Assembly (NCBI GenBank): GCA_016861245.1
Contig: BOKZ01000001.1
Location: forward strand, 615,006-679,005
Source of the DNA: Patescibacteria group bacterium
Lineage (GTDB): Bacteria > Patescibacteriota > UBA1384 > 2-12-FULL-50-11
Length of the DNA: 64,000 nt
Direction: 5' to 3'
Below the pieces are notes generated by a model. It was not told the origin of the DNA. It made no database searches and saw only the letters and a program-made list of their open reading frames with translations. The position numbers were made by a program, and so were the translations under genes. Shown piece by piece: positions 31,344 through 63,350 of the stretch; positions within the stretch are counted from its first letter, which is position 1, and each line of letters begins with the position of its first letter.

Positions 31344-34259
31344 TTATTTTATTTCGTCGATCGGCTCGTAATCGTCGTTAATTTTAGGTCTGTCAACGTG
31401 CGTCGAATCTAGTTTCAGACCCAGCGAGTCAGCCTGATCCCAGGTAATTAAATGCGTCAATTCTTCGTCACTCTCCCCTGCTCCCCCACTCTGCGGCTCG
31501 GTGTCTAGATGTAATTCTTCGATCACTTGTTCGCTAATCGCCGCTTCTGGTGCTGGACTCACAGGCGAGGAACTCTCAGAAACTGGGGACTCCCCTGCTT
31601 CAGTCGGTTTTTCAACCATATCCCCTTCTGGAGAAACCGCGTACCATTGCCGATTAAAACGATCTTTCAGTATCTCCATCTTCTTCGGCAAGATAAACTC
31701 AGTTTCCTTTACGATCTCTTGTTGCTCTTCTGTTTGGATATCTGATTTAACAGGTTCGGCCTCGGTTTGATTTTTTTCTGTGGGTAGGGTGACAATCCGA
31801 TCCATCTTTTTCGCGTTTTCGACGCTGTGCGGATTTTTATCCTCTTCTTCGCTTAAGTTGATCGGTGACGACCAATCGGTGATGTAATCTTCGACGTCAC
31901 TTTTTGGTGTAGCAAACGCCTCCCGACTAGCAATTACAACTTGATCCTTCAGCATCGCTTTTTCGGTTGGCGGCGGTAGCGTTGCGGCGGAGAACGCCGG
32001 CACCGTAACGCCGTCGATCGCCATCTTTAAGTAAATCTGGCGGTTCGGCTGGTTCACTAAATCGTTTACATCGAAAACTGGCTGGAACTCATTTTTTAGC
32101 GCCTCGGCGTCGGCCGCGCCGACACGAAACGCTACCATCGTACCAACGTTCCCGAATACAGCGTTTGCGACAGTCTCCGGCATCTGGCTGATGTACTGGT
32201 TAATCATCACCAAATTGAGTCGGTATTTACGAGCTTCAGAAAGAATTGTTGCAAACGAGTCGGTCGCAAAATTCTGAAACTCGTCTACGTATAAGTAGAA
32301 ATCACGTCGATCTTCTTCTGCAACATTTGTTCGTCCCATCGCTGCAAGTTGAATCTTAGTAATTAACATAGAACCAAGCAGCGCCGAGTTATCCTCGCCA
32401 ATTTTTCCGGTCGAGAGATCGGCAAGTAGAATCTTGCCTTCGTCCATAATTTTCCGGATATCCATCGTCGATCGCGGTTGTCCGACAATATTCCGAATTG
32501 TTGAAGACGAGAGGAACTGGCCGACTTTGTTTTGGATCGGTGCGATCGCTTCTTGCCTAAACTTCGGTTCGTACTTTTCGTACTCGTTCACAAAGAAGTC
32601 CTTAATGACCGGGTCTTTCAGCACGCTAATTACTTTTCGACGATAGGCGTTGTCGGTAAGAATTCGCATTACACCCAGTAGCGTCGAGTTCGGATATTCA
32701 AGCAACGCCAATACGGAATTACGTAGGATATACTCCAAGCGCGGACCCCAAGATTCGCCGAAGATCTTTTTAAAGATTCCGACAACACCGGAGGCGACAA
32801 CGTTTTGCATCTCCGGTTGAACGTTTTCTAAGATGTTAAAACCGATCGGGAAATCGTGATCGGCTGGGTTGAAGTAAACGACGTCGTGAATGCGTTCTTC
32901 CGGAATAAAATCTAGTACGTGATCGATCAGCTCGCCGTGCGGATCAACAACAGCGACCCCTCTACCTTCGCGAATATCGTCGTAGATCATGTTTTCCATT
33001 AGCGTCGACTTACCGGTTCCGGTTTTACCGATGATGTAAGCGTGTAAACGACGATCTTTCTTTTTAATACCGAACTTGCGAATTTCGTTACGGAAGTTTG
33101 TTTGCGCGAATACTGTTAGCTCGTCCGCTGGCACGGTCCCGATTAGCGGCAAGTTCGACGGCGGTTCCCCTTTTTTGGAGCCTGCCCACGCGATCGTCGG
33201 CGTAGCCACTGTTTCTGACGGGAAATGGTAAAGCGACGCTAGCTCGGTGATGTTAAAAATCATATCGCCAGCGCCAATATCACGATTTCGGTAGAGCGTG
33301 ATTACATCGTGATCGGTTACGATTTCTTTTGACGCAAACCCGTTTAAGTTAAGCGTATTGTATTGCTTATAAGCGCCGACAATTTGCTCTAGCTTGGCGC
33401 TGGCGGCGTACTGCTCCGGCGCGATCGCCACGATGCGAATCGTAGAGCCAAATCCGAGTTTTGTAATCTTCTCTTCGATTCCCTTAAGCGCTTGTTGAAC
33501 CGGGCCGCTTAATTCTTTTGCTTTACTCTCTTTTTTCTCTTCCGGAGCGCTGCCAGCGCCAGTAGCGACGCTCTTAATAAAATCGACCGTGAAGTTCTTC
33601 ATTTCTTTAGCGACCAACTCGACGGCGCCAACTTGTTTAGCTGGCGGTTCTTTAACGTTTTTAATCTCAGCGTCTCCGAGCTTTTGCCAGTCGTCGTCGA
33701 TCGGTCGGACGATCAACTGAACCCAAATTTCCTCGTGATCACCAGCCGAACTAAGCACCCCGGTAATCGATGAAAGCGGGTCAACTTCAAAGTTTTGGAA
33801 CGTTTTAATTGGATAAACAGGCGGTTTTTTAAGAACGAGTTCAGTTGCCGCCACCGCTTTTTCTTCCGGCGCAATCGCGTAATCTTGATCGGTCGGTACT
33901 ACAGAAATCTCAACGTTCGGGTACTGCGCGTAAATCTGACTCGTCACAAATTCTTTCAACTCCGCTGGCATTTGAGCAAAGAATGTGATGGTTTTATTTT
34001 TAGAAATTACTTCAAAGCTAATATGTTGTTGTTGTGAAACGCTTTCACGAAAGATACCGTGCAACGCGGCGAACATCTGCTCTGCCGCTTGTGGCGTGCG
34101 GTCGTTGTTTTTTGGTACCGATATCGAAACTAGTACCCGATCGCTCGGACCGAGGTGTTCGGCTACTTCTTGCTTGACTGTCGAGCTACGTCGCCAGAAG
34201 TAAACAGCGCCGCCGATAAAGAAGGCAGTAAATAGTAAATTGATCGTTAGTAACAACAT
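31344..34259 (-). CDS. membrane-anchored type IV coupling protein-like ATPase (VirD4/TraG/TrwB-like, FtsK-HerA superfamily), paralog B, with long acidic C-terminal tail
   Basis: 971 aa. N-terminal TM (LLLTINLLFTAFFIGGAVYFW). Walker A IIGKTGTGKSTLMENM followed by AVVDPHGEL (DPxGE as in TrwB). Walker B FYLYVDEFQNF. The roughly 230-aa C-terminus is acidic and low-complexity. The start overlaps the stop of paralog A (TAATG). Confidence 0.7.
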   Translation of the reverse strand: MLLLTINLLFTAFFIGGAVYFWRRSSTVKQEVAEHLGPSDRVLVSISVPKNNDRTPQAAEQMFAALHGIFRESVSQQQHISFEVISKNKTITFFAQMPAELKEFVTSQIYAQYPNVEISVVPTDQDYAIAPEEKAVAATELVLKKPPVYPIKTFQNFEVDPLSSITGVLSSAGDHEEIWVQLIVRPIDDDWQKLGDAEIKNVKEPPAKQVGAVELVAKEMKNFTVDFIKSVATGAGSAPEEKKESKAKELSGPVQQALKGIEEKITKLGFGSTIRIVAIAPEQYAASAKLEQIVGAYKQYNTLNLNGFASKEIVTDHDVITLYRNRDIGAGDMIFNITELASLYHFPSETVATPTIAWAGSKKGEPPSNLPLIGTVPADELTVFAQTNFRNEIRKFGIKKKDRRLHAYIIGKTGTGKSTLMENMIYDDIREGRGVAVVDPHGELIDHVLDFIPEERIHDVVYFNPADHDFPIGFNILENVQPEMQNVVASGVVGIFKKIFGESWGPRLEYILRNSVLALLEYPNSTLLGVMRILTDNAYRRKVISVLKDPVIKDFFVNEYEKYEPKFRQEAIAPIQNKVGQFLSSSTIRNIVGQPRSTMDIRKIMDEGKILLADLSTGKIGEDNSALLGSMLITKIQLAAMGRTNVAEEDRRDFYLYVDEFQNFATDSFATILSEARKYRLNLVMINQYISQMPETVANAVFGNVGTMVAFRVGAADAEALKNEFQPVFDVNDLVNQPNRQIYLKMAIDGVTVPAFSAATLPPPTEKAMLKDQVVIASREAFATPKSDVEDYITDWSSPINLSEEEDKNPHSVENAKKMDRIVTLPTEKNQTEAEPVKSDIQTEEQQEIVKETEFILPKKMEILKDRFNRQWYAVSPEGDMVEKPTEAGESPVSESSSPVSPAPEAAISEQVIEELHLDTEPQSGGAGESDEELTHLITWDQADSLGLKLDSTHVDRPKINDDYEPIDEIK

Positions 34260-36655
34260 TAGAGTGAAATTGCGTCAACTGGTGGCAAAGAGTATTGCTT
34301 ACGTGCGGCAGTGCGAATCCAGTTAGACATCTCTATTGTACCCTTGTTTGGGCTCTTTACGCCTCGGAGACTAAACGGTTTGGTTGGCGTCAGGTCCACG
34401 AGCAGCTTAACATAGGCCTGAAACCGGTCAAGGTTGGTTAGATCCTCAACGGACAAGCCGACCATCTCGTGGCTAAGGTACTCGGCGTCTTCAGCGCCGA
34501 CGCGATACGCAATTAATGTACCGACGTTACCAATCACCGCATCGCGGATTTTTTCGGTTAACTGCGCAAAATACTGGTTCGTAATATTTAAACAGAGCCT
34601 GTACTTTCGTGCTTCGGCTAAAATTGTTGCGAACGTGTCGGTCGTAAAATTCTGAAACTCATCAACGTACAAATAGAAATCTTGGCGATCTTCCTCTGGA
34701 ATATCGGCGCGACTAAACGCAGCCACTTGCATTTTCGAAACAAGAATAAGCCCGAGTAGATTCGAGTTAATCTCACCAATTTTACCCTTGGCTAAGTTGA
34801 TGAGCAGGATCTTTTTACCGTCCATTACTTCGCGAAAATCAAACGAACTTTTTTTCTGGCCGATAATATTGCGCATTAAATCGTTGGTCATAAAGCGACC
34901 GAACTTCGAGATAAAATAGTTATACATCTCCGATTTATGGAAATCGGAGGTTTTGGCTAATTGCTGCTGCCAAAAGGCTTTCACAACCGGATCGGTAACG
35001 TTGGCGACAGATTTTTCCCGGAACGCGTCGTCGGTGAAGAGTCGTGGCAGATCGATCAAACTGCCGCCATCTGGGTTGCTCATTACCGTCAGCGCTGCGT
35101 TACGTGCCCAGTGCTCCCACTGCGGTCCGACGATGCCGGTACGGTTAGGGTCAAAAAGCTTGTAGAAAATTTCGATTACTTCTTGAATTAGAAAGTCTTT
35201 TTCCTCCGGACGACTGTACTCTAGTAAGTTCAGTCCGAGTGGATACTCGGTATCTGATGGGTCAAATAGGATAACGTCTTTAGCGCGGTGAGTTGGAACC
35301 TTCTTTAATAAACTTTCAATCGCGTCACCGAGCGGATCGATAAAACATAGCCCTTTACCGGCGTGCATGTCTTGCTCAATCATCGTCTCAAACAACGTCG
35401 TTTTCCCAACACCAGTTTTTCCGATCATGAATAAGTGTCGACGCCGATCTTCGTCTTTAAGCCGAACCAACTGACGCGTACCGCGGTAGATCGACTCGCC
35501 CAACACCACGCCGTCGTTTGGCAAATTCGCCGGCGCCGGTAACGAGCGAGCGACTAACCACTTAACGCCAGGTGTCTCCAACGAACGGTTCGGCAGATGA
35601 AAAATACTACTTATCTCTTCAACGTTTAGGATCATCCGCGGCGCCCCGGTAAATAGACGCAGCAAATAATCGCGGGCAATCTTTTGCGGCGCCACTTTTT
35701 TATATTTCAAACTATTAAATTGCGGCGAGTAAAACTGCGCCATCGACGAAATAATAATATTTAAATTAGCGTCAGCAGACGCTTCGTCTTTTCCGGTCGC
35801 CACAATCCTAATTATTACTTCAAATCCCGTCTTAGCGCCTTTTTCCTGTAGACCTTTAATCAGCTCTTCCTGCTGAGGGTTGAGCGGCTGTGGCTTTTCT
35901 TCCACTTTAGTTGGTCGTACAACTTCGCCGATCATACCGGCAACGCGCCCGGTTTTAGAGCGATTAACTAAATGCATTTTGTTGTTAGTAACGTGTCCAG
36001 TAGCCACGACGGTATGCTGACGCCACGAGTCGTTGATCGGTCGAATAAGCAGTTGGACCGCGGCTGTGCCGTTGTCTTTTAATTTCGTTAGTGCGTTCGT
36101 CATCGCCGAGAGCGGATCGGTCTCCAAATAACGGTAAGTTTTTAACGGTAAGATAAAACTTTTAGCTTGTTCCATTACTGCGCCGCTAACTGCTGGAGCT
36201 TCGGCGGTAAAAATCGGCGGCGGCACATCGTACTGAATTTCCGCGGTCGGAAAGTAACTATGCAGTTGTCTCTCAACGATCGATTGAATGCGCTTCGGAC
36301 AAATTATTAAAAACTGAATCACGTTACCGACCGAAACGATCTCCAAACTAACGTGCGCCGGCGTACTAAATAACCAATCAATAAAATGTTTCTGATGAAT
36401 GGTGGTGGTTAACGAAGAGTAGAACTGCTCCATCGGCGAGATTAAGTCTTTAAAGTCTTTGATCGGCTCGTTAGCTTGATCAGTTCGTTTCTGTGTATCG
36501 CGCGGTACTGTTACCGTCATCGCTACAAGACTTTTTACATCATCAAATGTATCTTTTTTCTGGAAGTAGCGTAAAAACAGCGTCAAGATGATCGGTACAA
36601 TCGCAATGACGGCAATAATTGTAAAAAATAAGTAATTAGGTAGGCCGTCAAACAT
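34259..36655 (-). CDS. membrane-anchored type IV coupling protein-like ATPase (VirD4/TraG/TrwB-like), paralog A
   Basis: 798 aa. N-terminal TM (YLFFTIIAVIAIVPIILTLFL). Walker A MIGKTGVGKTTLFETM followed by CFIDPLGDA. Walker B FYLYVDEFQNF. Same architecture as paralog B, with about 35-40% identity by eye in the ATPase region. Confidence 0.7.
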   Translation of the reverse strand: MFDGLPNYLFFTIIAVIAIVPIILTLFLRYFQKKDTFDDVKSLVAMTVTVPRDTQKRTDQANEPIKDFKDLISPMEQFYSSLTTTIHQKHFIDWLFSTPAHVSLEIVSVGNVIQFLIICPKRIQSIVERQLHSYFPTAEIQYDVPPPIFTAEAPAVSGAVMEQAKSFILPLKTYRYLETDPLSAMTNALTKLKDNGTAAVQLLIRPINDSWRQHTVVATGHVTNNKMHLVNRSKTGRVAGMIGEVVRPTKVEEKPQPLNPQQEELIKGLQEKGAKTGFEVIIRIVATGKDEASADANLNIIISSMAQFYSPQFNSLKYKKVAPQKIARDYLLRLFTGAPRMILNVEEISSIFHLPNRSLETPGVKWLVARSLPAPANLPNDGVVLGESIYRGTRQLVRLKDEDRRRHLFMIGKTGVGKTTLFETMIEQDMHAGKGLCFIDPLGDAIESLLKKVPTHRAKDVILFDPSDTEYPLGLNLLEYSRPEEKDFLIQEVIEIFYKLFDPNRTGIVGPQWEHWARNAALTVMSNPDGGSLIDLPRLFTDDAFREKSVANVTDPVVKAFWQQQLAKTSDFHKSEMYNYFISKFGRFMTNDLMRNIIGQKKSSFDFREVMDGKKILLINLAKGKIGEINSNLLGLILVSKMQVAAFSRADIPEEDRQDFYLYVDEFQNFTTDTFATILAEARKYRLCLNITNQYFAQLTEKIRDAVIGNVGTLIAYRVGAEDAEYLSHEMVGLSVEDLTNLDRFQAYVKLLVDLTPTKPFSLRGVKSPNKGTIEMSNWIRTAARKQYSLPPVDAISL

Positions 36656-39071: not shown

Positions 39072-40028
39072 ATGATCAACGTAGTCAAATCTGCATGGAA
39101 GTGGCTATTAACTTTCGTGCTCAAACCGCTCGTCCTCTACAGAAGCCGCGAACACGTTGAATTCAAATTCAATTGGTTCAGTACGTTTCTAGTGCTGCAG
39201 TCAGCGGCGTGCATCAGCCTCGTACTGTGGCTGTACCATCGCATCTCGCCGGAGCTCTTTGCCGTACAGTTCAACTCGCCCTGGTACGAGTATGTGATCT
39301 GTTTCGTCGTCGCTCACGCGTTCATGGGACTGTTCGAGTACTTCTTTCATCGCTACACGCTCCACGGGCTGTTCTGGAAGTTCCTCTGGTTTCTCCATCG
39401 GAAGCACGAGGAGCATCACGGCCTTACGCACGTCACCGACCTTAAGGGTAGCACTGAAGTGGCGTCGAGGAGTAAAGTTCGAAACAAGTACGCGATCAAA
39501 GACGGCGACCAAATTCAGTCGTCGGCCTTTCCGGCCTACGCCCTGGTCACCTTCTGGGGGATCTTCAGTCTTGTTCTCGTCCCACTGCAGCTACTCTTGC
39601 GATCGCAACCGATCGTTATAACCGGCTACATGTCGGTTGTGTTTTCGTTCGGTCTCTACGAGATTATCCACGCCATCTGGCATCTGGATTACGACAAGCA
39701 TTGGAAAAAGCGCGTCGAAACCTCAAAGACTTGGCGAACGATCTACGGGTTCCATCTCATGCACCACGTCCGTGGTTGCAGTAGAACTAACCTGGCAATC
39801 AGCGGCGTATTCGGCTACTGGCTATGGGACAAACTGTTCGGCTCGCTCTACATTCCATCCGAGTTACCACTCGAAGGCGTGGAGATCGATCCCGACACGC
39901 TCAAGCCCCCGAAACCGCCTCGCTGGCTCCAGTGGCTCGACGAAAAAGTCGATGCCCGCGCAGCCCGCATCAAAAAGCAAGAAGCCAAACGGCGTCTCGC
40001 CGTGCATCAGTCCTCCTCGCGCCCGTAA
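39072..40028 (+). CDS. fatty acid hydroxylase/sterol desaturase superfamily membrane protein (di-iron His-box enzyme)
   Basis: 318 aa. His boxes HRYTLH, HRKHEEHH, HAIWHLD and HLMHH, with several TM segments. The gene is GC-rich (all-frame shadow ORFs), suggesting horizontal acquisition. Confidence 0.7.
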   Translation: MINVVKSAWKWLLTFVLKPLVLYRSREHVEFKFNWFSTFLVLQSAACISLVLWLYHRISPELFAVQFNSPWYEYVICFVVAHAFMGLFEYFFHRYTLHGLFWKFLWFLHRKHEEHHGLTHVTDLKGSTEVASRSKVRNKYAIKDGDQIQSSAFPAYALVTFWGIFSLVLVPLQLLLRSQPIVITGYMSVVFSFGLYEIIHAIWHLDYDKHWKKRVETSKTWRTIYGFHLMHHVRGCSRTNLAISGVFGYWLWDKLFGSLYIPSELPLEGVEIDPDTLKPPKPPRWLQWLDEKVDARAARIKKQEAKRRLAVHQSSSRP

Positions 40029-43697: not shown

Positions 43698-44009
43698 CTA
43701 CATCCCAGGTAGTTTCATGTCCTTGAGTAGTGGCTGCATTCGGGTGGCGGATTCGGTCTGAGCGCGGCTCATTGCTTGACCGATTGTGTCCTTAAGATTT
43801 GCCTCGAGCTCATTCTTTTTTTCCGGAGTTAGTAGTTCATCAGCAATTTCAATGGCTACAATCTTCATCTCGCCGCTTACTACAACACCAACGAGATTAT
43901 CAGTAGAGCGCGCTTCGATCTCTAGCTCTTTAAGCTCTTTTTGTAGCTGTTTGGCTTTCTTTTGGAGCTGATACATATCTTTCATCTGTCCGAAATTTGG
44001 TAATGCCAT
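43698..44009 (-). CDS. ybaB: nucleoid-associated protein YbaB/EbfC
   Basis: 103 aa. MKDMYQLQKKAKQLQKELKELEIEA...VGVVVSGEMKIVAIEI. Confidence 0.8.
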   Translation of the reverse strand: MALPNFGQMKDMYQLQKKAKQLQKELKELEIEARSTDNLVGVVVSGEMKIVAIEIADELLTPEKKNELEANLKDTIGQAMSRAQTESATRMQPLLKDMKLPGM

Positions 44010-44995
44010 TATTTTGTTTCCTTTCTTTTTAGTAATAAATATTTTGCGTACGCATCGATGAACGTTTCTATTTTGCCGTCGAGCACGTCGTCGACAGCGC
44101 TGGTTTCAAAGCCAGTGCGCACATCTTTAACGAGCTGGTACGGCTGTAGTACGTACGATCGAATCTGATTTCCCCAGGAAGCTAAGACCGGCTCGCCTTT
44201 GTGTTTCTGCTCTTCGGCACGCTGGCGTTCTTCCTCGAGTAATTGTAGCTTTGCTTGAAGGATTTTCATAGCCTGTAACTTATTTTGCAGTTGACTTCGT
44301 TCGTTCTGGCAAGTTACTACGATCTTGGACGGCAAGTGAGTAATTCGTACTGCCGAATCGGTAGTATTAACGCCTTGCCCGCCGTGACCCCCAGCTCGAT
44401 AAACGTCGATCTTTAGTTCATCTGGATTAATTACTAATTCTGATTTTTCAACTTCTGGGACAACCTCTACAAGCGCAAACGAGGTGTGACGGGATTTACT
44501 AGCATCAAACGGCGAGATTCGGACGAGCCTATGAACGCCGCCTTCGCCTTTGAGCTTGCCGTACGCGCGAAAACCTTTAACCTGCAACATCGCGCTTTTA
44601 ATCCCCGCTTCTTCACCGGCGCTTTTTTCTAGCAACTCCACTTTGAAGTTAGCGCGTTCGCAGTAACGAGTGTAGAGACGTAAGAGCATCTCGGCCCAAT
44701 CCTGAGCTTCGGTGCCGCCAGAGCCGGCGTGAACAGAAAGATACGCATTCGAGTCGTCGTGTTCGCCAGTAAAAACTGCTTCTCGCTCTATCTCATCGAG
44801 CTCGCGTTCGCTTTCTGCTAATTCGAATCGCAAAAGCATATCTTCAAGGTGTTTATACTCCTGCGTTAGCTTAGCGGCATGTTGATGATCACTCCAAAAT
44901 TCTGGATTTTTCATCTGTTCCTGAATGCGAGCTAGGCGCTCCTGTTTAGAAGGAATCCCCAATAGTTCTTCTAGTTCTTTTTTACGATCATTCAT
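44009..44995 (-). CDS. prfB: peptide chain release factor 2 (no programmed +1 frameshift site present)
   Basis: 328 aa. GGQ motif (GGHGGQGVNTTDSAVRITHLP). SPF tripeptide (RISPFDASKSR) marks RF2 rather than RF1. The ORF begins about where the E. coli frameshift site would be, and no CTTTGAC lies upstream. Confidence 0.85.
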   Translation of the reverse strand: MNDRKKELEELLGIPSKQERLARIQEQMKNPEFWSDHQHAAKLTQEYKHLEDMLLRFELAESERELDEIEREAVFTGEHDDSNAYLSVHAGSGGTEAQDWAEMLLRLYTRYCERANFKVELLEKSAGEEAGIKSAMLQVKGFRAYGKLKGEGGVHRLVRISPFDASKSRHTSFALVEVVPEVEKSELVINPDELKIDVYRAGGHGGQGVNTTDSAVRITHLPSKIVVTCQNERSQLQNKLQAMKILQAKLQLLEEERQRAEEQKHKGEPVLASWGNQIRSYVLQPYQLVKDVRTGFETSAVDDVLDGKIETFIDAYAKYLLLKRKETK

Positions 44996-45015: not shown

Positions 45016-45088
45016 CCCCAAAGCGTGCTTGGGGTGGGGGTGAAGGGGGTAGGGGCAGCGCTTCGCAAGTAGCACCCCCTACCCCCTT
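45016..45088. repeat. GC-rich G-tract palindromic repeat element, copy 1
   Basis: CCCCAAAGCGTGCTTGGGGTGGGGGTGAAGGGGGTAGGGGCAGCGCTTCGCAAGTAGCACCCCCTACCCCC. About 85% identical, in inverted orientation, to 51366..51448. Confidence 0.6.
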
Positions 45089-45142
45089 CTATAAAAATTG
45101 AGTCTTTGGTTGAACAAAATTTTTGTAAGTTTTTAAGTAACA

Positions 45143-45172
45143 AAAAAAGACCCATTTCTGGGTCTTTTTTTG
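45143..45172. terminator. bidirectional intrinsic terminator (AAAAAAAGACCCAtttcTGGGTCTTTTTTT)
   Basis: Perfect hairpin flanked by A7/T7, downstream of the 45180..45734 gene on the minus strand. Confidence 0.7.
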
Positions 45173-45179
45173 TTACTTG

Positions 45180-45734
45180 TTAACCAAGTAAGTCAGCTTC
45201 TTTGCGAGCTAACATGTAGCGACGTAAAGCAACCGCTAGGGTTGTTAACGCACCCGGAAGGATAGCAGCTTCCGCACCAGCCTTTGGTAAGGTGGTGACA
45301 GTCTTGCTAACTACCACTTTGTTAGCACACTTCGCAGCAGCTTTAGCAGCGCTGGCGCTCGAAGACGAGCTAGCAGCGGAACTGGCTGAAGCAAAGGCAC
45401 TCGGACAATCCGCCGTCTGAGTTACGGTGTTACCACCGCTTGTTGCAGACGAAGAACTTGAGCTAGAACTCGAAGAGCTAGAACTCGAAGACGAGCTTGA
45501 GCTAGACGAACTCGAACCGCTAGAGCTAGACGAGCCGCTTGAAGCAGCCGAACTAGCAGAAGCACCGGCACCAGCAGAAGCTGATACGCCACCAACACTA
45601 GCCGAAGCAGCGCTTGAAGAGCTAGCAGACGAGCTTGAGCTCGAAGAGCTAGAACTTGAAGCAGCGGCAACTAGCGCAGGGCTAGTAAAGGCTACTGTTA
45701 AGGCAACTAAGATGGAAACTAATATATATTTCAT
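45180..45734 (-). CDS. serine-rich repeat surface protein with C-terminal LPxAG-type sortase sorting signal
   Basis: Signal peptide MKYILVSILVALTVAFTSPALVAA. About 100 residues of near-pure Ser/Ala/Gly. C-terminal TLPKAG, then a hydrophobic stretch, then RRYMLARKE (cell-wall-anchor architecture). AGGAGAT RBS before MKYIL. Confidence 0.6.
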   Translation of the reverse strand: MKYILVSILVALTVAFTSPALVAAASSSSSSSSSSSASSSSAASASVGGVSASAGAGASASSAASSGSSSSSGSSSSSSSSSSSSSSSSSSSSSSSATSGGNTVTQTADCPSAFASASSAASSSSSASAAKAAAKCANKVVVSKTVTTLPKAGAEAAILPGALTTLAVALRRYMLARKEADLLG

Positions 45735-45880
45735 TATATCTCCTATTATCATCTCACTTGCCCTAAGGCAAGTGTGCTTATATTTTCATTCACTTTTCAG
45801 ACTAATCTCGACTTCTAATTAGTCGGAAAAGAAATGTTCCGAGGCACAGGTTTTAAGGCCTGCACCTCGGAAAGGATGTT

Positions 45881-46633
45881 CTATCCTCCTGCCGCTGCTG
45901 CCGAGCTGGAGCTCGACGATGACGACGAAGAGGAAGAACTGGAAGAGCTTGAGCTCGAAGACGAGCTCCCGCCCGCGCCACCTGCACCGCCGAAAGCAAG
46001 AGCTGCAACGTTGAACGTATTGCCCTTGCCCAGCTGGGCATTGAAGGAGACGCCGCCGATCACCGGCGAGATCACCGTCGGAGCGCCCAGGTTGGCGATG
46101 TGTTGCTGCTGGGTGGGCAGCAACATGACGGGAATGTACTTCGGCACTTCGACCGGCCGATCGACCGGCACGTAGACCGGCACTTCGACCCGTCGTTCGG
46201 GACCAGGTACCGTCACTCGGTACTCGCGAACCAACGTGCGTTGGTACGTCAGCGTTCGAGTCTCGGTTTTCACCGCCGACCGCTGCCAGATCAGGTTGTT
46301 GCAAGCAACAATCTGAAGCGGCAGATCGGTCTTGCGATCGCAGAGAACCTGGCGACCAGCGAGCGATTCGTACTTGAACTCGTTACGGTTGCGGTAGTGA
46401 ACCCAACCGTACTCGCCCTGACGACCGGCACGTCGGTACGTGCCCTCGTTGCTCACCGGAAGTCGCGAGTAGGACCATTGGTAGTCCTTGGAGAGCAGAA
46501 GGTCTGGGCCTTCCTGGTACTCTCGGACGAACTCCCGAGTTCCAGAACTCGTTGACGGGTCAATGCTCTGCGCACCAGCGAGGCTGGCACAGATCAGAGC
46601 GGCAATGACGAGAGGGGTGTGGATCAGTTTCAT
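45881..46633 (-). CDS. secreted hypothetical protein with C-terminal poly-Ser tail (GC-rich islet)
   Basis: 250 aa. Signal peptide MKLIHTPLVIAALICASLAGAQS. Val/Pro-rich repeats (VEVPVYVPVDRPVEVPKYIPV). Ends with GGAGGAGG + S24. Local GC is about 60%. Confidence 0.55.
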   Translation of the reverse strand: MKLIHTPLVIAALICASLAGAQSIDPSTSSGTREFVREYQEGPDLLLSKDYQWSYSRLPVSNEGTYRRAGRQGEYGWVHYRNRNEFKYESLAGRQVLCDRKTDLPLQIVACNNLIWQRSAVKTETRTLTYQRTLVREYRVTVPGPERRVEVPVYVPVDRPVEVPKYIPVMLLPTQQQHIANLGAPTVISPVIGGVSFNAQLGKGNTFNVAALAFGGAGGAGGSSSSSSSSSSSSSSSSSSSSSSAAAAGG

Positions 46634-46634
46634 C

Positions 46635-47807
46635 TTAGTTCTCCTCGCTCAAGCGGAAGACGAGAGTTCGCTCTCGTCCGTCGGCGTCGATCAGTGTGAT
46701 CGTCGCTCCAAGGAAGCGCTTGATACTTCCCCAGGCTATCGCTTCGTGGCGATCGCCGCTTCGGCGCAACATCAGCGGGTGGTCTTTGTCGTCGAGCCTC
46801 AGTACCGCTGTAAACTGCCTGGAGTCACTCAACGTCAGTACCACTTGATTCCGACGGGAGGATAACTGGATCTCAGTTACCTCCGGCGCGAACGTGTGAC
46901 GACGTGCATCTCCGAGTAGTTGCTGCTCGGTGGCGTTCAGCTCTGAACGGAGGAAGTCGAACTTCTGCTCCGAACTTGTCTGCATCGCACCAACAGTAAC
47001 AGCGCAAAACTCGACTGGAGGCTGGTTAGCACCGGCCGTTCCAGCGTTACCTGCGTTACCGACGTTTGCACCGGTTGGAAAACCACCGGGCAAAGCGGTG
47101 TTGCCTGTCTGCGTAGTCGGCGGCTGGTTAGCCGGTCGACCTTGCAGGGCAATTTGGAACTCCTCAAGCGAAGTAAAGTTCCGAATCGTTCCGTCCGGCA
47201 TCTGAGCCGTGTATGACTGAACGACTGGATACATACTTCCACCCGCGCCGGCCGTAGCCAGGCGAGCTTGCTCGTCAGCGGCCATTTGGAGAAATTGGCG
47301 GATATCGAGACGAATGAACGTCGCACTCCCCCACTCCGTACGGCTCGTACGAACCTTGATCTGGTTGATTCCAAGATCTAGATCGCTGACGGCGATGAAC
47401 GGATAGTCGCCAACCACGCCCTGAGCGCCGCTGGGTCTACCTCTCACCACCCTGCCACCTTCGACCTTCCGCCACTCGACTAACTTGTCGTTGACGTAGA
47501 TTGTGTGGTCGTGAGCTGGTGAGCTGTTCGTGAAGGCTTTCACCTTCAGCAGAACTTTGTCACCAAACCAGACCGAAGTCTGAGTGGTGGGATCCCAGCT
47601 CGTAAAGTAAGTCGGTTGATCGCCCTTGACGATGTAAACGTCGAAAACGACCTTGACGGCCGAAATCGGACGTTCTTGCGTTTGGGCGATCCGGGCGTTG
47701 ATACCCGAGCTGATTGCTCCGAAGAGCAACGACTCGAGCAACTGTGCCTTTGCGAACGTTGGGGCAATGGCAAGAACCACCGCCATCAGAATTGCGGATT
47801 TCTTCAT
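46635..47807 (-). CDS. secreted hypothetical protein (GC-rich islet)
   Basis: 390 aa. Signal peptide MKKSAILMAVVLAIAPTFAKAQ. A Gly/Asn/Ala-rich linker in the middle. No family recognised. Its stop is 1 nt from the start of the next gene. Confidence 0.55.
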   Translation of the reverse strand: MKKSAILMAVVLAIAPTFAKAQLLESLLFGAISSGINARIAQTQERPISAVKVVFDVYIVKGDQPTYFTSWDPTTQTSVWFGDKVLLKVKAFTNSSPAHDHTIYVNDKLVEWRKVEGGRVVRGRPSGAQGVVGDYPFIAVSDLDLGINQIKVRTSRTEWGSATFIRLDIRQFLQMAADEQARLATAGAGGSMYPVVQSYTAQMPDGTIRNFTSLEEFQIALQGRPANQPPTTQTGNTALPGGFPTGANVGNAGNAGTAGANQPPVEFCAVTVGAMQTSSEQKFDFLRSELNATEQQLLGDARRHTFAPEVTEIQLSSRRNQVVLTLSDSRQFTAVLRLDDKDHPLMLRRSGDRHEAIAWGSIKRFLGATITLIDADGRERTLVFRLSEEN

Positions 47808-48073
47808 CTTTGTATCTCCTGTGCGTGCATTCCGCGGATCGCGGTGACGCTCTTGTCAGCGCCATCTCAGCCAGGAAGAGGGAAGGAGGGAAACTGTCGA
47901 GGTCGAGCAAGCTCAGCCTGTAATGACAGCTCTCCCTAATCCCAGCCGAGAGGGCACCGACAAACAGAAACTACAAAGACATATACTATTACTCTCTCCA
48001 ATCCACTCGCAATCTCATCGGTAGATATTAATTGCGAGCGGGTTGGAGATGGCGAGACGAGCTCGCCGAGGAT

Positions 48074-48092
48074 GTTGGTGGAGGCGCCGGGA
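48074..48092 (-). repeat. 19-nt direct duplicate of the tmRNA-like gene 3' end (ATTCCCGGCGCCTCCACCA on minus strand); att-like
   Basis: Identical to 48131..48149, 38 nt downstream of the tmRNA-like 3' CCA. This is the kind of duplicate left by site-specific integration at tRNA/tmRNA 3' ends. Confidence 0.55.
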
Positions 48093-48126
48093 ATACACCG
48101 TAACTGTGTGATCCCCGCCGCTCCAA

Positions 48127-48264
48127 AGGCAAATCTTGGTGGAGGCGCCGGGAATTGAACCCGGTTCCAAAAAGAGAAACACGATGTCGTTGGTTTTTGT
48201 TTAGGCATTTTCCCAACTTGAGCTACCACGCTCAGACTTCGCTCTTACCCTCTCTGTCGAACCC
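48127..48264 (-). ncRNA. ssrA: tmRNA (ssrA)-like gene comprising only the tRNA-like domain and P2 helix (138 nt; no tag reading frame found)
   Basis: The minus-strand 5' end GGGGGCGUAAGGGUUCGACAGAGAGGG matches the tmRNA 5' consensus (compare B. subtilis GGGGACGUUACGGAUUCGACAGGGAUGG). The 3' end AUCGUGUUUCUCUUUUUGGAACCGGGUUCAAUUCCCGGCGCCUCCACCA matches the tmRNA T-arm/acceptor/CCA (compare AUCGAUGUUUCUGGACGUGGGUUCGACUCCCACCGUCUCCACCA). The 5' GGGGGCG pairs with the 3' CGCCUCC. The body is far too short for pseudoknots or a tag ORF. Confidence 0.55.
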
Positions 48265-48483
48265 TTACGCCCCCACTGCTTGGGTACCAAAAACTGCCAC
48301 TGCTTTCCAATTCGCCTCATCAGCATTAATCGGAACAATCGAGACAAGGTTCCAGCCCCGTTCTGACATTTCATCGAAGGAAATTGGTTCTTCTGCAAAC
48401 TGCAAGTCTCTGACTCGCAGACAGACGTTTTTCTCGCTGTCCACTGTTGCAACTATTGGTAGGGTTCTGTATTGCATATTCAC
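48265..48483 (-). CDS. hypothetical small protein (72 aa) abutting the tmRNA-like 5' end
   Basis: MNMQYRTLPIVATVDSEKNVCLRVRDLQFAEEPISFDEMSERGWNLVSIVPINADEANWKAVAVFGTQAVGA. Balanced composition. Not SmpB. Confidence 0.35.
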   Translation of the reverse strand: MNMQYRTLPIVATVDSEKNVCLRVRDLQFAEEPISFDEMSERGWNLVSIVPINADEANWKAVAVFGTQAVGA

Positions 48484-48916
48484 TCCAATCAGCTCACGGT
48501 ACAGGCGGTATTAATGTAACCGCTCGTTCATGGGCTAGTTGGAGAGAACGGATTGTTAAAGTGTGCCGCTATGAACGAAAGCTCTTTGGACATTCGTCGC
48601 ACGGCAGGCTTCTTGCGAAGCGATTGCACTATATAAAGGAAGTTAGATACCTACGAGCGGTTGTTGCGACGACGCTACGTTGGATACGTCCCACTGGGAG
48701 CGCAACGCTACGGTGTAATTCGAAACATCCAAACGTAAGTAAAATAAAAAGCCGTGGTAGACAGAACAACTACTAGAAAGTAGGTTCCGCTGCGCACTAC
48801 CGATGCGATCTCACGACTGTTTCAACTTCTTTTTTGTTTTGGTGCAATACACTTTTTGAGTGTGCACGAACAATAGCATATGCTAGTTAAGATGTCAATG
48901 AATGTGAGGCAAATTT

Positions 48917-50251
48917 TTACCGCGGTATATAAATTGTACCATTGACGGTATCAACCACTTCGTAGCCTACCTGCTCGATTTCTGCTTTGCGATTGTCGGC
49001 AGTGAGAAAATCGTTCTTAGCTCGGGCTGCGTCCCGATCTTCGGCTAATCGCTTCGCCGAGTCACTATTTTCAATTGGCATATACCTTAAACCAAAGATA
49101 TCAAATAAGTTATCGGTATCAGCTTTATTGATAAGTTGAGCATTCTCACCCCAGAGTTGCAGTGCTTTCGGGCTATCGAGATCGTCGTTTAACGCGTCTA
49201 TAATTGCGTCAAATACTTGCATATCTGTTTTTTCAGGAGAAATAGCATATGCCTGAAATATCTTGCGACGCAGAGCGATTCCTTGCTCCATAACTGTTTT
49301 TGTGTAATCAAATGGCTTACGATAATGTGTTTGGTAAAAGGCGAGCCTTAATTCATTAGCGCTATACTGCTTTAGTGCTTCTTGAACAGTAAGACTGTTG
49401 TGAAGAGATTTACTCATCTTCTGACCGCCTACACTCAGCATCCCAGTGTGAACCCAGTAATTAGCCATGGTTTTACCTGTTAAACTCTCTGACTGAGCGA
49501 TCTCGTTCTCGTGATGAGGAAACACGTGCTCTAGACCTGATCCGTGTAGATCAAAAGTGTCGCCAAGATACTTACGACTCATAGCAGAACACTCGATATG
49601 CCAACCAGGGTAACCTCTACCCCAAGGCGAATCCCAAGTCATCTCGTTAATTGAGACTGGAGCAGCTTTCCACAGGGCAAAATCTGCCGGTGAACGTTTG
49701 TCTCCAGCAGCTTCTACTCGCGTGCCAGTAAGTATCTCGGTTAAGCCGCGATGGCTTAGCTTACCGTAATCTTTCTTTTTCGCGACACTAAAGTAGACGT
49801 TCCCAGCAGCAGTTGTATAGGCATATCCTTCCTTAATTAGTCCCTCAACGAACTCAATAATGTCGTTGATGTGTTCAGAAGCTTTAGGGAAATTATTAGG
49901 TAATCGAACCTGAAGCGCTTCTAAATCTCTCAAGTGTGCTTGAGTAAAGTGATCAACAATCTGGCGTACCGTTTGACCTGTTTCGTGGGCTTTCTTTTGA
50001 ACCTTATCTGCTCCGACTTCGGCGTCGTTAACCATATGCCCAACATCGGTAATATTCTGGATATAAGTAACTTTATAGCCCAGATAGGTTAAGAAACGAA
50101 CCAGTAAATCAAACCCTAAATATGTTCGGGCGTGACCGAGGTGGTCGTAGTCGTAAACGGTTGGTCCGCAAACGTACATTCGAACCTCACCGTCGGTAAT
50201 TGGTTTAAACTCGTCTTTTGTACCCGTAAGTGTGTTATAGATCCGAAACAT
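48917..50251 (-). CDS. cysS: cysteine--tRNA ligase
   Basis: 444 aa. HIGH-type motif [14 protein letters not shown] motif, and a Zn-binding Cys pattern of class I CysRS. Confidence 0.95.
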
Positions 50252-51335: not shown

Positions 51336-51365
51336 TTATCATTTGTTATATTAGCCATTTTTTAT

Positions 51366-51448
51366 GCAGGGGACAGGGGGTGCTATTTGCGAAGCGCTAC
51401 CCCTATCCCCTGCACCCCAACCCCAAGCACGCTTTAGACACGGGGTTG
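51366..51448. repeat. GC-rich G-tract palindromic repeat element, copy 2 (inverted relative to copy 1)
   Basis: GCAGGGGACAGGGGGTGCTATTTGCGAAGCGCTACCCCTATCCCCTGCACCCCAACCCCAAGCACGCTTTAG. Its reverse complement aligns with 45016..45088. Confidence 0.6.
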
Positions 51449-58198: not shown

Positions 58199-59125
58199 CT
58201 ATCGACTAACGTTACCGCCGCCTGCGTAGAGGTTATAGTCGTAAATTCCGATTAACGTGCCGCTAACTCTATTAACTTCTGCCACCAGCGTTCGTTTACT
58301 CGAGCCGTAATACCCGGTTGCGATAATAACGGTTGTCAGCGAATCGATTTCCGGTCCGCGTGTTGTACCGACGCCGCTACCGCTAGTAGTGGTAGAAGTA
58401 ATTAAAGCAAACTTAACATCACAGAAATACGGTCGGAATCGCAAAGTGGTAGTAATGTCGTTTGTGGTTTTTATATCCCAGTTTTCGTTAACCCCCATCG
58501 AGTCGTAAATTGGGTTGCCGCCCCAACGAACCTGTTTTTGCGTTAAGACTTGCCCGCCTTCAGTGATCTGTTCTAACTGAACAAACGCTCGGTTATCGCT
58601 ACACTGAAACTGAAACGCGTGACGCAGATAATATGGTAGGCTATCAGCCCTATTCTCAAAGCCCGTTAGCTCTACTGCGGTATCTTTCACCGCCGTTTTA
58701 GCCGAGGCCCAGTCGAGAGTGCCGTTAGCAGCGATACCAATACTTGGGACTTTGTACTTAACTTCAAGATCGTAGTACTGTTCTTTTGGGTCGTAATTTA
58801 AGCCAGCAGTAGTCGAGAGATCTTCGTTGTTATCTACCTCAAACGTGGCAGTCTGCGGATACCTTGCGCTTGTTATACCGTAACGAAAAGCCTTACCGCT
58901 CAATGTCTGTATATCACGGTTAAACCGATATCTGGCTAACCCATCCTCAATCCCGGCTTTAGCGGCGTAGTACGCTAAAATATTATCTTCTTCGCGAGAA
59001 GATTGGCTAAACTGGACTAAGCTTATGCGCTGAGCCGCAAAAACGACCACTAAAACACCGCTAATGATCAATAGAACCATTAAGATACTGCTACCGGTTT
59101 TTTGTTGTTTAAATATTCCCCTCAT
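58199..59125 (-). CDS. pilus-associated protein with N-terminal TM anchor (PilX-like minor pilin candidate)
   Basis: 308 aa. N-terminal hydrophobic helix LMVLLIISGVLVVVFAAQRISLV with no GFTLIE motif. Co-oriented with the pseudopilin genes and overlaps the next gene by 4 nt. Confidence 0.5.
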   Translation of the reverse strand: MRGIFKQQKTGSSILMVLLIISGVLVVVFAAQRISLVQFSQSSREEDNILAYYAAKAGIEDGLARYRFNRDIQTLSGKAFRYGITSARYPQTATFEVDNNEDLSTTAGLNYDPKEQYYDLEVKYKVPSIGIAANGTLDWASAKTAVKDTAVELTGFENRADSLPYYLRHAFQFQCSDNRAFVQLEQITEGGQVLTQKQVRWGGNPIYDSMGVNENWDIKTTNDITTTLRFRPYFCDVKFALITSTTTSGSGVGTTRGPEIDSLTTVIIATGYYGSSKRTLVAEVNRVSGTLIGIYDYNLYAGGGNVSR

Positions 59126-59808
59126 CGCGATCCACCTGTTGTGATTGTTGTACTAACACTATAACACTTCGCTCGGACTTCTGCGCTAGTGCATATTGCT
59201 GTGATATCGATCGGCTTGAAGGTAAACGACAATCGTATAAACGGTGAGTGAGGCACAACTGGAGGATCTGGGACTGAGGCATCTTTAGGATTACTCCCAG
59301 AGAAAAATGGAGTACCGATTAAGCCAGTTTCTACTTTATATCCGTTAGAGAGGATTGACACCGCAGGTGACGACTCCGAACAGCTCAGCACCCGGGAATT
59401 ACCTTGGGTTCGAACTGTACAGCCCCTATGCTCTTTTAGAGTTATATCACCTGTTGGCTCGACGTTAAAAACCTTGTAAACGTAATCGGTCGAGCGCGGA
59501 TACTTCAACACGATCTTTAAACAACCGTCACTAAAATCATATCCGACAAATTCGCCGCCAGCCTGAACACAGTTGCCCTGCCCCTGCTCGTTCGTAATTT
59601 GTTCATTCAAATAGACGTATCTTAAGTCGTTAGTAATTCGATCTATTACGGAGCGCGCAACCTCCGTTCGGCGACGTGTCTCACCGCTTTTGAGCGACGA
59701 GGCTGCGCTTCGGGCAAAGATACCTAGCGTCAAGATTGCTAAACCAGAAAAAATTGCGACTGCAACTAATAACTCTAATAACGTGAAGGCTTTTCGTTTC
59801 TTTTGCAT
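59122..59808 (-). CDS. type IV prepilin-like minor pilin/pseudopilin
   Basis: 228 aa. N-terminal class III signal KRKAFTLLELLVAVAIFSGL. Confidence 0.75.
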   Translation of the reverse strand: MQKKRKAFTLLELLVAVAIFSGLAILTLGIFARSAASSLKSGETRRRTEVARSVIDRITNDLRYVYLNEQITNEQGQGNCVQAGGEFVGYDFSDGCLKIVLKYPRSTDYVYKVFNVEPTGDITLKEHRGCTVRTQGNSRVLSCSESSPAVSILSNGYKVETGLIGTPFFSGSNPKDASVPDPPVVPHSPFIRLSFTFKPIDITAICTSAEVRAKCYSVSTTITTGGSR

Positions 59809-59811
59809 AGA

Positions 59812-60600
59812 TTACAAATCGCCGACGCTTCGCCAATTTGTTAGCATCGTTGCGATGTCAGTAAAGCGATACTCACCGCGATCATTCCACAGCACAACTG
59901 AACGAACCTTAACAGCGTTGCCATCTAGAATTAACTTCGGACTGCCGGTACCAAGTCCTTCGCGATTAAGGCTTGGTCGTGTCAACAAGCAGTACCTATC
60001 GAAACGTAATTGATCAACAGTCGGCGCTTCCTGATAGCAAGTGGTTGCCGAAGCGTTACGTGGGCCGTCCGTGACAATTTTGGTTGTTGTATCGTCGCCG
60101 TTAGTATTGCAGTGCAATTTGTTGGTATTTTGATTCGCCGTTCTAATAGCTCCAACTGCTTCGACGCAGATAAATCGGTAGCCACGCAAATTCTCAGCTT
60201 GAATTTCGTCGCCAGTTAGCGGCGCCGGATCAAATGTGGCCGTTTTATACTCCAAAACATTTTTATATTCGGTCGGCAACGGCTGTAATCTCCAAGTAAT
60301 CCCATCAGCGTTGGCTACTAAATAGTGCCAGCCGTAACGATCTGAGGTTAGGTTTGGCGTGTGAAACCAATACTGTTGTCCTTGGGAAAAGCCTTGTATC
60401 CTTGAGTTGTCATCACGGATCTTCGTGGCAAATTCGATACCTTCAGCCGCCCAGCGGTTTGTCACTGTCGTATCACTACTAATAACAGTTCCTTGGATAA
60501 TAGAGTTGCTCAGCCCAACAACGGCTGCGGAAACAACAAAGAGTATGCCACCGGCAACCAAAACTTCTAAAAGCGTAAATGCCCGCTTCAATCTATTCAT
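59812..60600 (-). CDS. type IV prepilin-like minor pilin/pseudopilin
   Basis: Start at MNRLKRAFTLLEVLVAGGILFV (GGTGGAG RBS). About 262 aa. The longer ORF to 60630 lacks an RBS. Confidence 0.75.
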   Translation of the reverse strand: MNRLKRAFTLLEVLVAGGILFVVSAAVVGLSNSIIQGTVISSDTTVTNRWAAEGIEFATKIRDDNSRIQGFSQGQQYWFHTPNLTSDRYGWHYLVANADGITWRLQPLPTEYKNVLEYKTATFDPAPLTGDEIQAENLRGYRFICVEAVGAIRTANQNTNKLHCNTNGDDTTTKIVTDGPRNASATTCYQEAPTVDQLRFDRYCLLTRPSLNREGLGTGSPKLILDGNAVKVRSVVLWNDRGEYRFTDIATMLTNWRSVGDL

Positions 60601-61234
60601 ACTCCACCTGTACCCTCCCAGTGTAGTCATCTAATTTAACTTTTGCTCTTTTATCTTGGTAAGTCAAATGAAAAATGTCTTCTGGAAAGATCGGCGGCAG
60701 CTCCTGCCAAATAGTACCGGTGTTCCCTGGTCTTTCAAGAAGGAAAAGCTGCTGTGTAGGGGCTTTAAACGCGATAAAGAACGAGTCTTGGTCGTAAACT
60801 TTCCGAGACCGGGCAGTAAACGTCACACGTTGGACAAAACATGGGCCAGATTGTAACCGAGCTTGTGTTCTGGCAGCTAACGGTCTGCATGCAGCCGTGG
60901 TGGAGTTAGCGGGATACGAGATACGAACGATCGAGAAATAGTTGTTGGTATTAATGTTATCGAGCAGTATTGCGTAATAACCGACGTCATCGACACCAAG
61001 CGAACCGCTATTTCCACCTGTCTCATCGATTTGTTGCGTTGAACCGGATAGCAAACGCACTTCTTCGAGCTTTGCCTTAAACAACTCAGCATCGTTTGCA
61101 ACGCTGTTTTTTGAGAGTGATCGATCGATATTGGGAATAATGAGCGCAATTAAAAGACCGATTATGGCCATAGAGATAATTAACTCAATTAAAGTAAAGC
61201 CTCGACGAACTCTTAGCCTAAAATCCCCTCTCAT
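60593..61234 (-). CDS. type IV prepilin-like minor pilin/pseudopilin
   Basis: 213 aa. RRGFTLIELIISMAIIGLLIALIIP. Confidence 0.75.
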   Translation of the reverse strand: MRGDFRLRVRRGFTLIELIISMAIIGLLIALIIPNIDRSLSKNSVANDAELFKAKLEEVRLLSGSTQQIDETGGNSGSLGVDDVGYYAILLDNINTNNYFSIVRISYPANSTTAACRPLAARTQARLQSGPCFVQRVTFTARSRKVYDQDSFFIAFKAPTQQLFLLERPGNTGTIWQELPPIFPEDIFHLTYQDKRAKVKLDDYTGRVQVEYE

Positions 61235-61268
61235 GTTCCTTTAGCGTAGCGAATTGTTCATTTGTTGG

Positions 61269-62075: not shown

Positions 62076-62150
62076 AGCTCTACATTACTTATTTCCGACG
62101 TAAAAAAGAAGAACCCATCCGGGTTCTTCTTTTTTTTAACTAAGTGTTTT

Positions 62151-62624: not shown

Positions 62625-62703
62625 ATCCCTCCTAATTTCTAATATTTCAAGTTCGTTCTGAACTGAATCCAAGGGAACGTGTTCCCCTGGAATTCAAACC
62701 AGA

Positions 62704-63234: not shown

Positions 63235-63350
63235 TTCTCCTCCTTTTGGGAATATAAATGTGAACTTTCGTCGACCGCCCCTCTCGTTCTGAAAAGATCG
63301 GTGAAAGCCATTACATTCAATATCATTCTATCCATCTTGTCTGTCAAGCA

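Follow-up and report, generated by a model that had tools for sequence, protein, structure and literature searches.

The serine-rich repeat glycoproteins GspB, Fap1, and SraP run to thousands of amino acids and carry a ligand-binding region and a long KxYKxGKxW signal peptide. The slpA and ompA mRNAs have long structured 5' untranslated regions (UTRs), which stabilize the transcript or allow autoregulation. Bacteria of the candidate phyla radiation (CPR) presumably live attached to host cells, and their surface proteins are, to our knowledge, almost entirely uncharacterized. Here, we analyzed a 64-kb stretch of DNA from a Patescibacteria group bacterium (contig BOKZ01000001.1; the whole stretch is referred to as the window), with a focus on three adjacent genes for predicted exported proteins, A, B, and C, and on a structured leader RNA upstream of A. 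As reported previously, the LPKAG motif occurs in SasF, a wall-associated protein of Staphylococcus aureus (PMC3398289), a species with two LPxAG proteins (PMC3436756), and sortase is encoded in more than half of CPR genomes (PMC6744442).

The leader-A-B-C locus is likely to be an ancestral, vertically maintained cell envelope locus of a Berkelbacteria-like CPR clade and not a foreign islet. This conclusion is carried by the position of the block, which is the same from lineage to lineage, and by a leader RNA whose fold has been kept by compensatory changes.

A conserved block between cysS and prfB

The order CysS-[leader]-A-B-C-RF2-YbaB-Pth-L1 was found in the window and in the lineages L006 (Candidatus Berkelbacteria RIFCSPLOWO2_01_FULL_50_28), L007, L011, L015, and L017, and L012 follows the order CysS-leader-A-B-C up to the start of C, where its contig ends. 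The A-B-C block thus occupies the same CysS/RF2 slot in the seven lineages with enough flank. In three distant lineages represented by short contigs (L018, L019, and L020), cysS and/or A is visible in a CysS-leader-A arrangement; their A proteins are only 24 to 31% identical to that of the window, yet the gene lies directly after CysS with the leader. The context was checked in nine lineages beyond the window, and A directly followed cysS wherever the upstream flank was present. When patchy presence was examined, the block was not absent from the CysS/RF2 site in relatives, and the variable part was a tmRNA-like (transfer-messenger RNA-like) gene in the spacer between cysS and A. Judged from this gene order, the A-B-C block appears to be ancestral to the Berkelbacteria-like CPR clade. 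Between lineages, with the close L007/L012 pair left aside (A 82% identical), identities were 23 to 52% for A and 28 to 55% for B, while those of CysS and of housekeeping proteins were 62 to 72% and 62 to 76%, respectively.

The block and its neighbors in the window are as follows.

48917-50251, minus strand: cysS, upstream neighbor of A
47851..47965, minus strand: structured 5' leader RNA, a 115-nt hairpin upstream of A
46635..47807, minus strand: gene A, open reading frame (ORF) of 390 amino acids, predicted secreted protein
45881..46633, minus strand: gene B, ORF of 250 amino acids, predicted secreted protein
45837..45872, minus strand: terminator-like hairpin 3' of B, a 14-pair stem followed by CATTTCTTTT, closing the GC-rich leader-A-B unit on its 3' side
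45180..45734, minus strand: gene C, ORF of 184 amino acids, Ser/Ala/Gly rich, with a predicted signal peptide and an LPXTG-type C-terminal signal
45135..45178: bidirectional terminator after C, a perfect 20-nt inverted repeat between A/T runs
44009-44995, minus strand: prfB/RF2, downstream neighbor of C

The window has a GC content of about 47%, and its housekeeping genes are typical of a small-genome bacterium. The three ORFs between cysS and prfB/RF2 all lie on the minus strand, as do both neighbors, and the leader, A, B, and C are all that was found between the tmRNA and RF2. A first-pass annotation, made from the DNA letters of the window, had described three signal peptide proteins here, and each ORF does have a basic N terminus, a hydrophobic core (Kyte-Doolittle hydropathy [KD] of 2.8 to 3.2), and a small-x-small site (AKA↓Q in A, AGA↓Q in B, and VAA↓A in C). 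Sec-type export of the three proteins is supported by these features. Lipoprotein or type IV pilin signals were considered for A and B and rejected, as neither a lipobox nor G↓FTLxE was present. That the proteins have no recognizable domains was borne out by searches of A, B, and C against Pfam, NCBIfam, PHROGs, PADLOC, and PDB sequences, none of which gave a match above threshold.

The genes are not spurious ORFs. When A was compared with its counterpart in a 96.6%-identical strain (L005), 36 synonymous and 4 nonsynonymous changes were counted (ratio of nonsynonymous to synonymous polymorphism, pN/pS, 0.036), and orthologues of the trio exist in several lineages. Five independent assemblies of this species share the arrangement, which rules out an assembly chimera. 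Gene B starts 1 nt past the stop of A (junction TAAGATG), and A and B are 1 nt apart or overlapping in every lineage checked, a spacing that suggests coupled translation and probably a complex.

Relatives of A are rare: 6 were found among 5.8 billion clustered proteins, a metagenome scan gave 2 loci only, and no viral relatives were found in IMG/VR. The A family comprised 29 representatives among 1.84 billion proteins, all about 360 to 425 amino acids long and of common architecture; a broad alignment of 28 sequences was too divergent for deriving search patterns. An AlphaFold2 model built from 27 sequences had a mean predicted local distance difference test (pLDDT) score of 80.5, compared with a poor 54 for an earlier run on 6 sequences. 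In the model, the signal peptide is followed by an N-terminal helix, a beta-sandwich domain (residues about 50 to 220, pLDDT above 90), a disordered G/N/A/P linker (residues about 225 to 265), and a second beta domain; the linker corresponds to the G/N/A-rich spacer noted in the first-pass annotation. A Foldseek search of the model against the PDB returned only generic immunoglobulin (Ig)-like sandwich or ectodomain matches (template modeling score, ≤0.18). An Ig-like fold would be consistent with a surface-binding role but is not proof of it.

Protein B had only 5 homologues in the search of 5.8 billion proteins, and its orthologues, present in seven lineages and 28 to 47% identical to window B, always come directly after A. 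Its conserved motifs are FKYESLAG, Pro-rich repeats of the VPGPER type, and LAPQQQ[HY]IANL..PTV, the last of which reads LLPTQQQHIANL..PTVISPV in the window. The tail of B is G/A rich, with a run of 22 Ser residues, rather than the 24 first reported, followed by AAAAGG.

One further observation concerns the intergenic DNA. An 81-nt G/C-rich palindromic repeat (…GGGGTGAAGGGGGTAGGGG…CCCCTACCCCCTTC…) occurs at 45020-45100 and, inverted, at 51356-51435, the two intergenic copies being about 88% identical. It resembles a repetitive extragenic palindromic (REP) element or a miniature inverted-repeat transposable element (MITE).

Strain exchange, base composition, and the origin of the block

Two features mark the spacer between cysS and A.

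48137..48275, minus strand: short tmRNA-like gene (Rfam RF00023, 75.2 bits, match 48137-48274, 138 nt)
48072..48155, minus strand: 23-nt tmRNA 3' end in two copies (22/23 identical, with a spacing of 61 nt)

The tmRNA-like gene is strongly reduced. Relative to RF00023, 274 model positions, including all pseudoknots, are replaced by 42 nt, and the acceptor stem with G3:U70, the T-arm, and helix 2 are kept. The tag predicted by ARAGORN is AKSERGSSSWENA followed by a stop, without the usual ...LAA ending, and strain variants preserve the tag frame (AAG>GTG and TCA>TCG). A literature search for reduced tmRNAs in CPR found nothing relevant. Rfam scans of the CysS-A site of L006 and L007 gave no tmRNA, and the CysS-A gap in most other lineages, about 200 to 360 nt, is too short for one. 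The 61 nt between the two 3'-end copies gave a subthreshold match to a permuted tmRNA model (22 bits, E value of 0.03), and strain L001 has a single copy of the 3' end (position ~2017).

Strains differ around this gene. L001 and L005 lack about 200 nt that are present just upstream of the tmRNA in the window, and the sequence immediately 5' of the tmRNA differs completely between strains; both ends of the gene are thus rearrangement breakpoints. For cysS, the window and L005 are 99.4% identical, while L001 is about 92% identical to both (91.8% for window versus L001). For A, B, and C, it is the window and L001 that are 99.7 to 100% identical, while L005 is about 96% identical to both (95.8 to 96.6% for window versus L005). 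These conflicting identities place a recombination breakpoint between cysS and A. The pattern of identities indicates that close strains exchange A-B-C as one unit, apparently by homologous recombination. The tmRNA-like recombination site of the first-pass annotation thus holds as a junction, together with its spacer, between close strains; the foreign islet attached to it is not supported.

Farther upstream in the spacer, at 48479-48916 on the minus strand, a run of about 400 nt following cysS is conserved in L007 (9033-9400) and L012. A strong TTGACA-17-TATTGT promoter lies within this stretch (48898-48870), whose end is at CTGATTGGAGTGAATATG. The element GATTGGAG recurs just before the leader (about 48005), and an insertion of about 450 to 500 nt flanked by the GATTGGAG repeat parts the promoter from the leader in the window, L007, and L012 lineages only.

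The base composition of A and B is unusual. Their GC contents are 56.4% and 60.4%, so the value of about 60% first given for both fits B and is too high for A. At third codon positions, the GC fraction (GC3) is 0.634 for A and 0.697 for B, compared with 0.470 ± 0.050 for 51 other genes of the window (z = 3.3 and 4.5), and the two genes are genuine outliers, while C is native-like (0.384). The GC3 of A and B exceeds that of the flanking genes in six of nine lineages; it is raised in L006, L015, L017, L019, and L020 also and not in L007, L012, or L011, with offsets from −0.04 to +0.2 among lineages. Since it is raised elsewhere too, the bias belongs to A and B as a pair and does not signal recent import. 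Expression-linked codon choice is an unlikely source, since GC3 is low in the ribosomal protein genes of the window.

A further strong outlier in GC3 (0.705) lies at 39072-40028 on the plus strand, where a 318-amino-acid membrane protein adjoins the L7/L12 gene in a variable slot. Its His-box motifs (HRYTLH, HEEHH, and HLMHH) look by eye like those of fatty acid hydroxylases or desaturases, and it has no Pfam match. This gene may be a true horizontal acquisition.

The raised GC3 of A and B, the start of the GC-rich stretch just past the 23-nt duplicate of the tmRNA 3' end, and a junction that is indel polymorphic between strains would all fit an adhesin islet acquired horizontally and integrated at the tmRNA 3' end, as first proposed. 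However, an islet does not explain a block that keeps one slot in seven lineages, with CysS-leader-A in three more, nor a GC3 bias shared with five other lineages. The tmRNA itself is missing by Rfam scan from L006 and L007, and most other lineages have no room for it. In addition, integrase or other mobility genes are absent between the tmRNA and RF2 (Pfam and PHROGs searches), viral relatives were not found, and the att-like copies, 61 nt apart, both lie upstream of the genes instead of on either side of them; a third copy within 3 mismatches does not occur in the window. Acquisition as an islet is therefore very improbable and is largely refuted by synteny.

A different kind of exchange would leave the slot intact. 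A and B could have been replaced as cassettes through xenologous recombination, the partners being Berkelbacteria lineages that differ in GC content and the homology arms being the invariant leader and the low-complexity part of C. The wide spread of A identities beside uniform CysS identities is in keeping with this, as in L019, where CysS is 70% but A only 27% identical to the window; so are the varying GC3 offset of A and B and the strain-level breakpoint demonstrated between CysS and A. Nevertheless, L007 and L011, whose A proteins are the closest, also stand among the nearest lineages in CysS and RF2, and fast evolution of surface proteins explains the spread of A identities equally well. 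Housekeeping identities are near star-like, so that incongruence is not demonstrable with these data. We consider such cassette replacement unlikely. One point weighs against vertical maintenance of the locus: the raised GC3 of A and B, which codon selection toward high expression fails to explain. The ancestral, vertically maintained locus is still the reading we prefer.

The leader RNA and the C-terminal signal of protein C

The leader hairpin lies upstream of A in all ten lineages (113 to 116 nt). Besides the window copy, its positions are as follows.

L006, 9816-9930: leader copy
L007, 9837-9949: leader copy
L011, 3112-3224: leader copy
L012, 4535-4647: leader copy
L015, 3374-3489: leader copy
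L017, 717-829: leader copy
L018, 15-127: leader copy
L019, 2069-2181: leader copy
L020, 5523-5634: leader copy

The leader is a previously undescribed structured RNA that is absent from Rfam; at E values of ≤10, a search of 47851-47965 gave only noise-level microRNA matches (≤15.7 bits). Its fold has a minimum free energy of −65.2 kcal/mol (z = −5.7), and across the ten lineages 21 of 44 pairs show compensatory changes on both sides. In the alignment, 96.8% of cells are paired, compared with at most 53% in slid controls, and none of 500 shuffles reached the observed values. A covariance model of the leader (R1) found one copy per locus, with 104 to 122 bits in the sense and 33 to 46 bits in the antisense direction; because of these scores and the G·U pairs, the RNA is assigned to the strand of gene A. 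A viral sequence with an 18-nt match to the leader core (L021) was rejected by the covariance model as a chance match in a GC-rich phage gene.

The invariant core, GGCUGGGAUUWGGGAGAG / UUUCCCUCCUUCCCUYUUCCUGGCU, is kept even where A is about 25% identical. It leaves a CCCUCCU bulge unpaired, which resembles an anti-Shine-Dalgarno sequence and is complementary to the AGGAGG Shine-Dalgarno sequence 29 to 79 nt downstream; AGGAGG precedes the start codons of A. In five lineages, a promoter-like TTGACA-N17-TAnnAT ends about 25 to 35 nt upstream of the hairpin. The leader would then be a 5'-UTR element that stabilizes the mRNA or gates translation.

Protein C starts at ATG 45734, with AGGAG 6 nt before it, in agreement with the coordinates of the first-pass annotation. 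The first description, more than 50% Ser/Ala/Gly, was if anything modest, since Ser alone makes up 35.9% and the three residues together 63.6%. In the predicted N-terminal signal peptide, MKYILVSILVALTVAFTSPALVAA↓ASSS, which is kept in orthologues, the hydrophobic core reaches a KD of 2.9; there is also a Cys pair (C110 and C136). The protein ends in ...TLPKAGAEAAILPGALTTLAVALRRYMLARKEADLLG, in which two features stand out.

45276..45290, minus strand: LPKAG pentapeptide of C, residues 149-153, 31 residues from the end
45183..45275, minus strand: hydrophobic segment AEAAILPGALTTLAVAL (KD 1.64) and basic tail RRYMLARKEADLLG of C

The basic tail has four basic residues. Both the N terminus and the tail of C are conserved in seven lineages, whose alignment reads LP[KAT][AT]G, then AE..[IL]LPG, about 12 hydrophobic residues, and R[RK][YF]..A[KR].E..L, with the pentapeptide always preceding GAE..LLPG. 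The window and L017 have LPKAG as the pentapeptide, L007 has LPAAG, L011 has LPTAG, and L006 and L015, the two deepest lineages, have the canonical LPATG.

On this comparative evidence, the reading of the tail as a sortase signal is strengthened but not proven. The tripartite LPXTG-type organization is present, with Ala in place of Thr in the window pentapeptide, and orthologues extend it to LPATG; the tail of L006 comes close to the Pfam model Gram_pos_anchor (PF00746), with an E value of 0.011 and 16.2 bits, below the cutoff of 20. Several findings weigh against sortase processing. The tail of window C had no match at E values of ≤10 among Pfam PF00746 and the NCBIfam sorting signal models. 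The first-pass annotation had reported no sortase gene in the window, and indeed none was found in the 64 kb or in any of the fetched loci by Pfam scans (in the window, of 40 further ORFs) or by scans for the TLxTC motif (in the window, in all ORFs of at least 60 amino acids). Among the 822 ORFs of the fetched DNA, C alone has such a tail, and typical LPXTG signals have a cytoplasmic part that is shorter and much less conserved than that of C. In addition, sortases are patchy in CPR groups outside Microgenomates (PMC6744442).

The tail could instead be a permanent C-terminal membrane anchor or a signal for another processing enzyme, with the LPxxG conserved for helix capping or protein contacts. 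This alternative gains from the same findings, namely, about 200 kb of related DNA in which sortase was not found, unmatched sorting signal hidden Markov models, and a tail borne by C alone, as well as from Ala at position 4 of the pentapeptide in five of seven lineages and from GAE..LLPG and R[RK][YF]..A[KR].E..L being more conserved than is usual for LPXTG signals. It does not readily account for canonical LPATG in the two deepest lineages at the typical distance of about 35 residues from the C terminus. Sortase genes usually lie apart from those of their substrates. LPKAG works in S. aureus SasF (PMC3398289), and sortases are common in CPR (PMC6744442). We regard a C that is not a sortase substrate as possible but the less probable case. 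Sortase processing of C is slightly favored, and a permanent membrane anchor takes up most of the remaining probability.

A search of 5.8 billion proteins with a profile of the C tail returned one partial protein, a result that carries no information, as the low-complexity orthologues had been filtered out or called on the wrong strand. In L001 to L004 and L011, the opposite-strand "ELELEE…" ORF (45427-45822, plus strand, in the window) was annotated automatically instead of C. This ORF was rejected as a real gene, as it has no conserved features, the wrong orientation, and no ribosome-binding site. Since gene callers pick the opposite strand of C, the family is largely missing from protein databases.

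Proposed working of the locus and comparison with known systems

The locus would be expressed as two transcription units, leader-A-B, ended by the terminator hairpin, and then C. A and B would be translationally coupled and exported by the Sec pathway, A with Ig-like beta-sandwich domains and a linker and B as a Pro-rich protein with a low-complexity tail, and together they would most likely make up a cell surface complex of fixed ratio, either with C or close to it. C would be a short, exported Ser/Ala/Gly-rich "stalk" held at the surface by LPKAG, the hydrophobic segment, and the basic tail, either covalently through a sortase encoded elsewhere or by a C-terminal helix that stays uncleaved in the membrane. 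The leader is a probable regulator of mRNA stability or translation, with an exposed CCCUCCU that is complementary to AGGAGG, and the block is exchanged as a unit by homologous recombination, with the breakpoint in the tmRNA-bearing spacer.

A bolder proposal, which we consider doubtful, is that leader-A-B-C combines a clade-defining envelope module, such as the main surface coat or host contact layer, with a new riboregulator class and a recombination hot spot. Here, CCCUCCU, presented by the ultraconserved 115-nt hairpin, would act as a 16S-like anti-Shine-Dalgarno mimic that pairs with the Shine-Dalgarno sequence of A or titrates a factor, and biased gene conversion at the hot spot would keep the GC3 of A and B high.

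A conserved, syntenic, exported trio, two members of which belong to families without known relatives, offers candidates for envelope or host contact functions in one CPR clade. The comparison gives support to LPXTG-type anchoring signals in this clade, the LPxAG variant included, and the covarying, unannotated RNA motif is directly testable as a regulator. Two warnings follow as well: a GC3 anomaly beside a tmRNA is insufficient for calling an island, and wrong-strand annotation of a Ser-rich gene leaves its family underrepresented in databases. The window contains other candidate cell contact systems at 31344-36655 and 58199-63776 (both minus strand), namely, two adjacent large genes for TrwB/VirD4-like coupling ATPases and a type IV pilus cluster with four N-methyl pilins, a PilD peptidase, and a type II secretion system F (T2SS-F) protein.

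Compared with GspB, Fap1, and SraP, C appears alike in combining a Ser/Ala-rich stalk with an LPXTG-type anchor, and by analogy the stalk is plausibly a wall-spanning or glycosylated spacer. C differs in its length of 184 amino acids and in having neither a ligand-binding region nor a KxYKxGKxW signal peptide, and no accessory SecA2/Y2 or glycosyltransferase genes lie near it (Pfam scans of the window ORFs). The leader resembles the slpA and ompA 5' UTRs in its very stable 5' hairpin, in preceding genes for what would likewise be exported envelope proteins, and in a consensus-like promoter upstream. It differs from them in a core of about 45 nt that is invariant across lineages whose proteins are about 25% identical, in the anti-Shine-Dalgarno-like CCCUCCU bulge, and in matching no Rfam family.

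The closest parallels are the Gram-positive LPXTG proteins, especially S. aureus SasF (LPKAG) and SasD. C departs from these proteins in its CPR host, with sortase not found in the window or fetched loci, and in scoring below the thresholds of the Pfam and NCBIfam models. In addition, it has a strongly conserved tail of 14 residues (RRYMLARKEA) and an extra conserved GAE..LLPG past the motif. C is like them in its predicted signal peptide, in an LPXTG-like pentapeptide about 35 residues from the C terminus, and in the hydrophobic segment and Lys/Arg-rich tail that follow, and it shares with SasF an identical LPKAG, which is tolerated by sortase in S. aureus.

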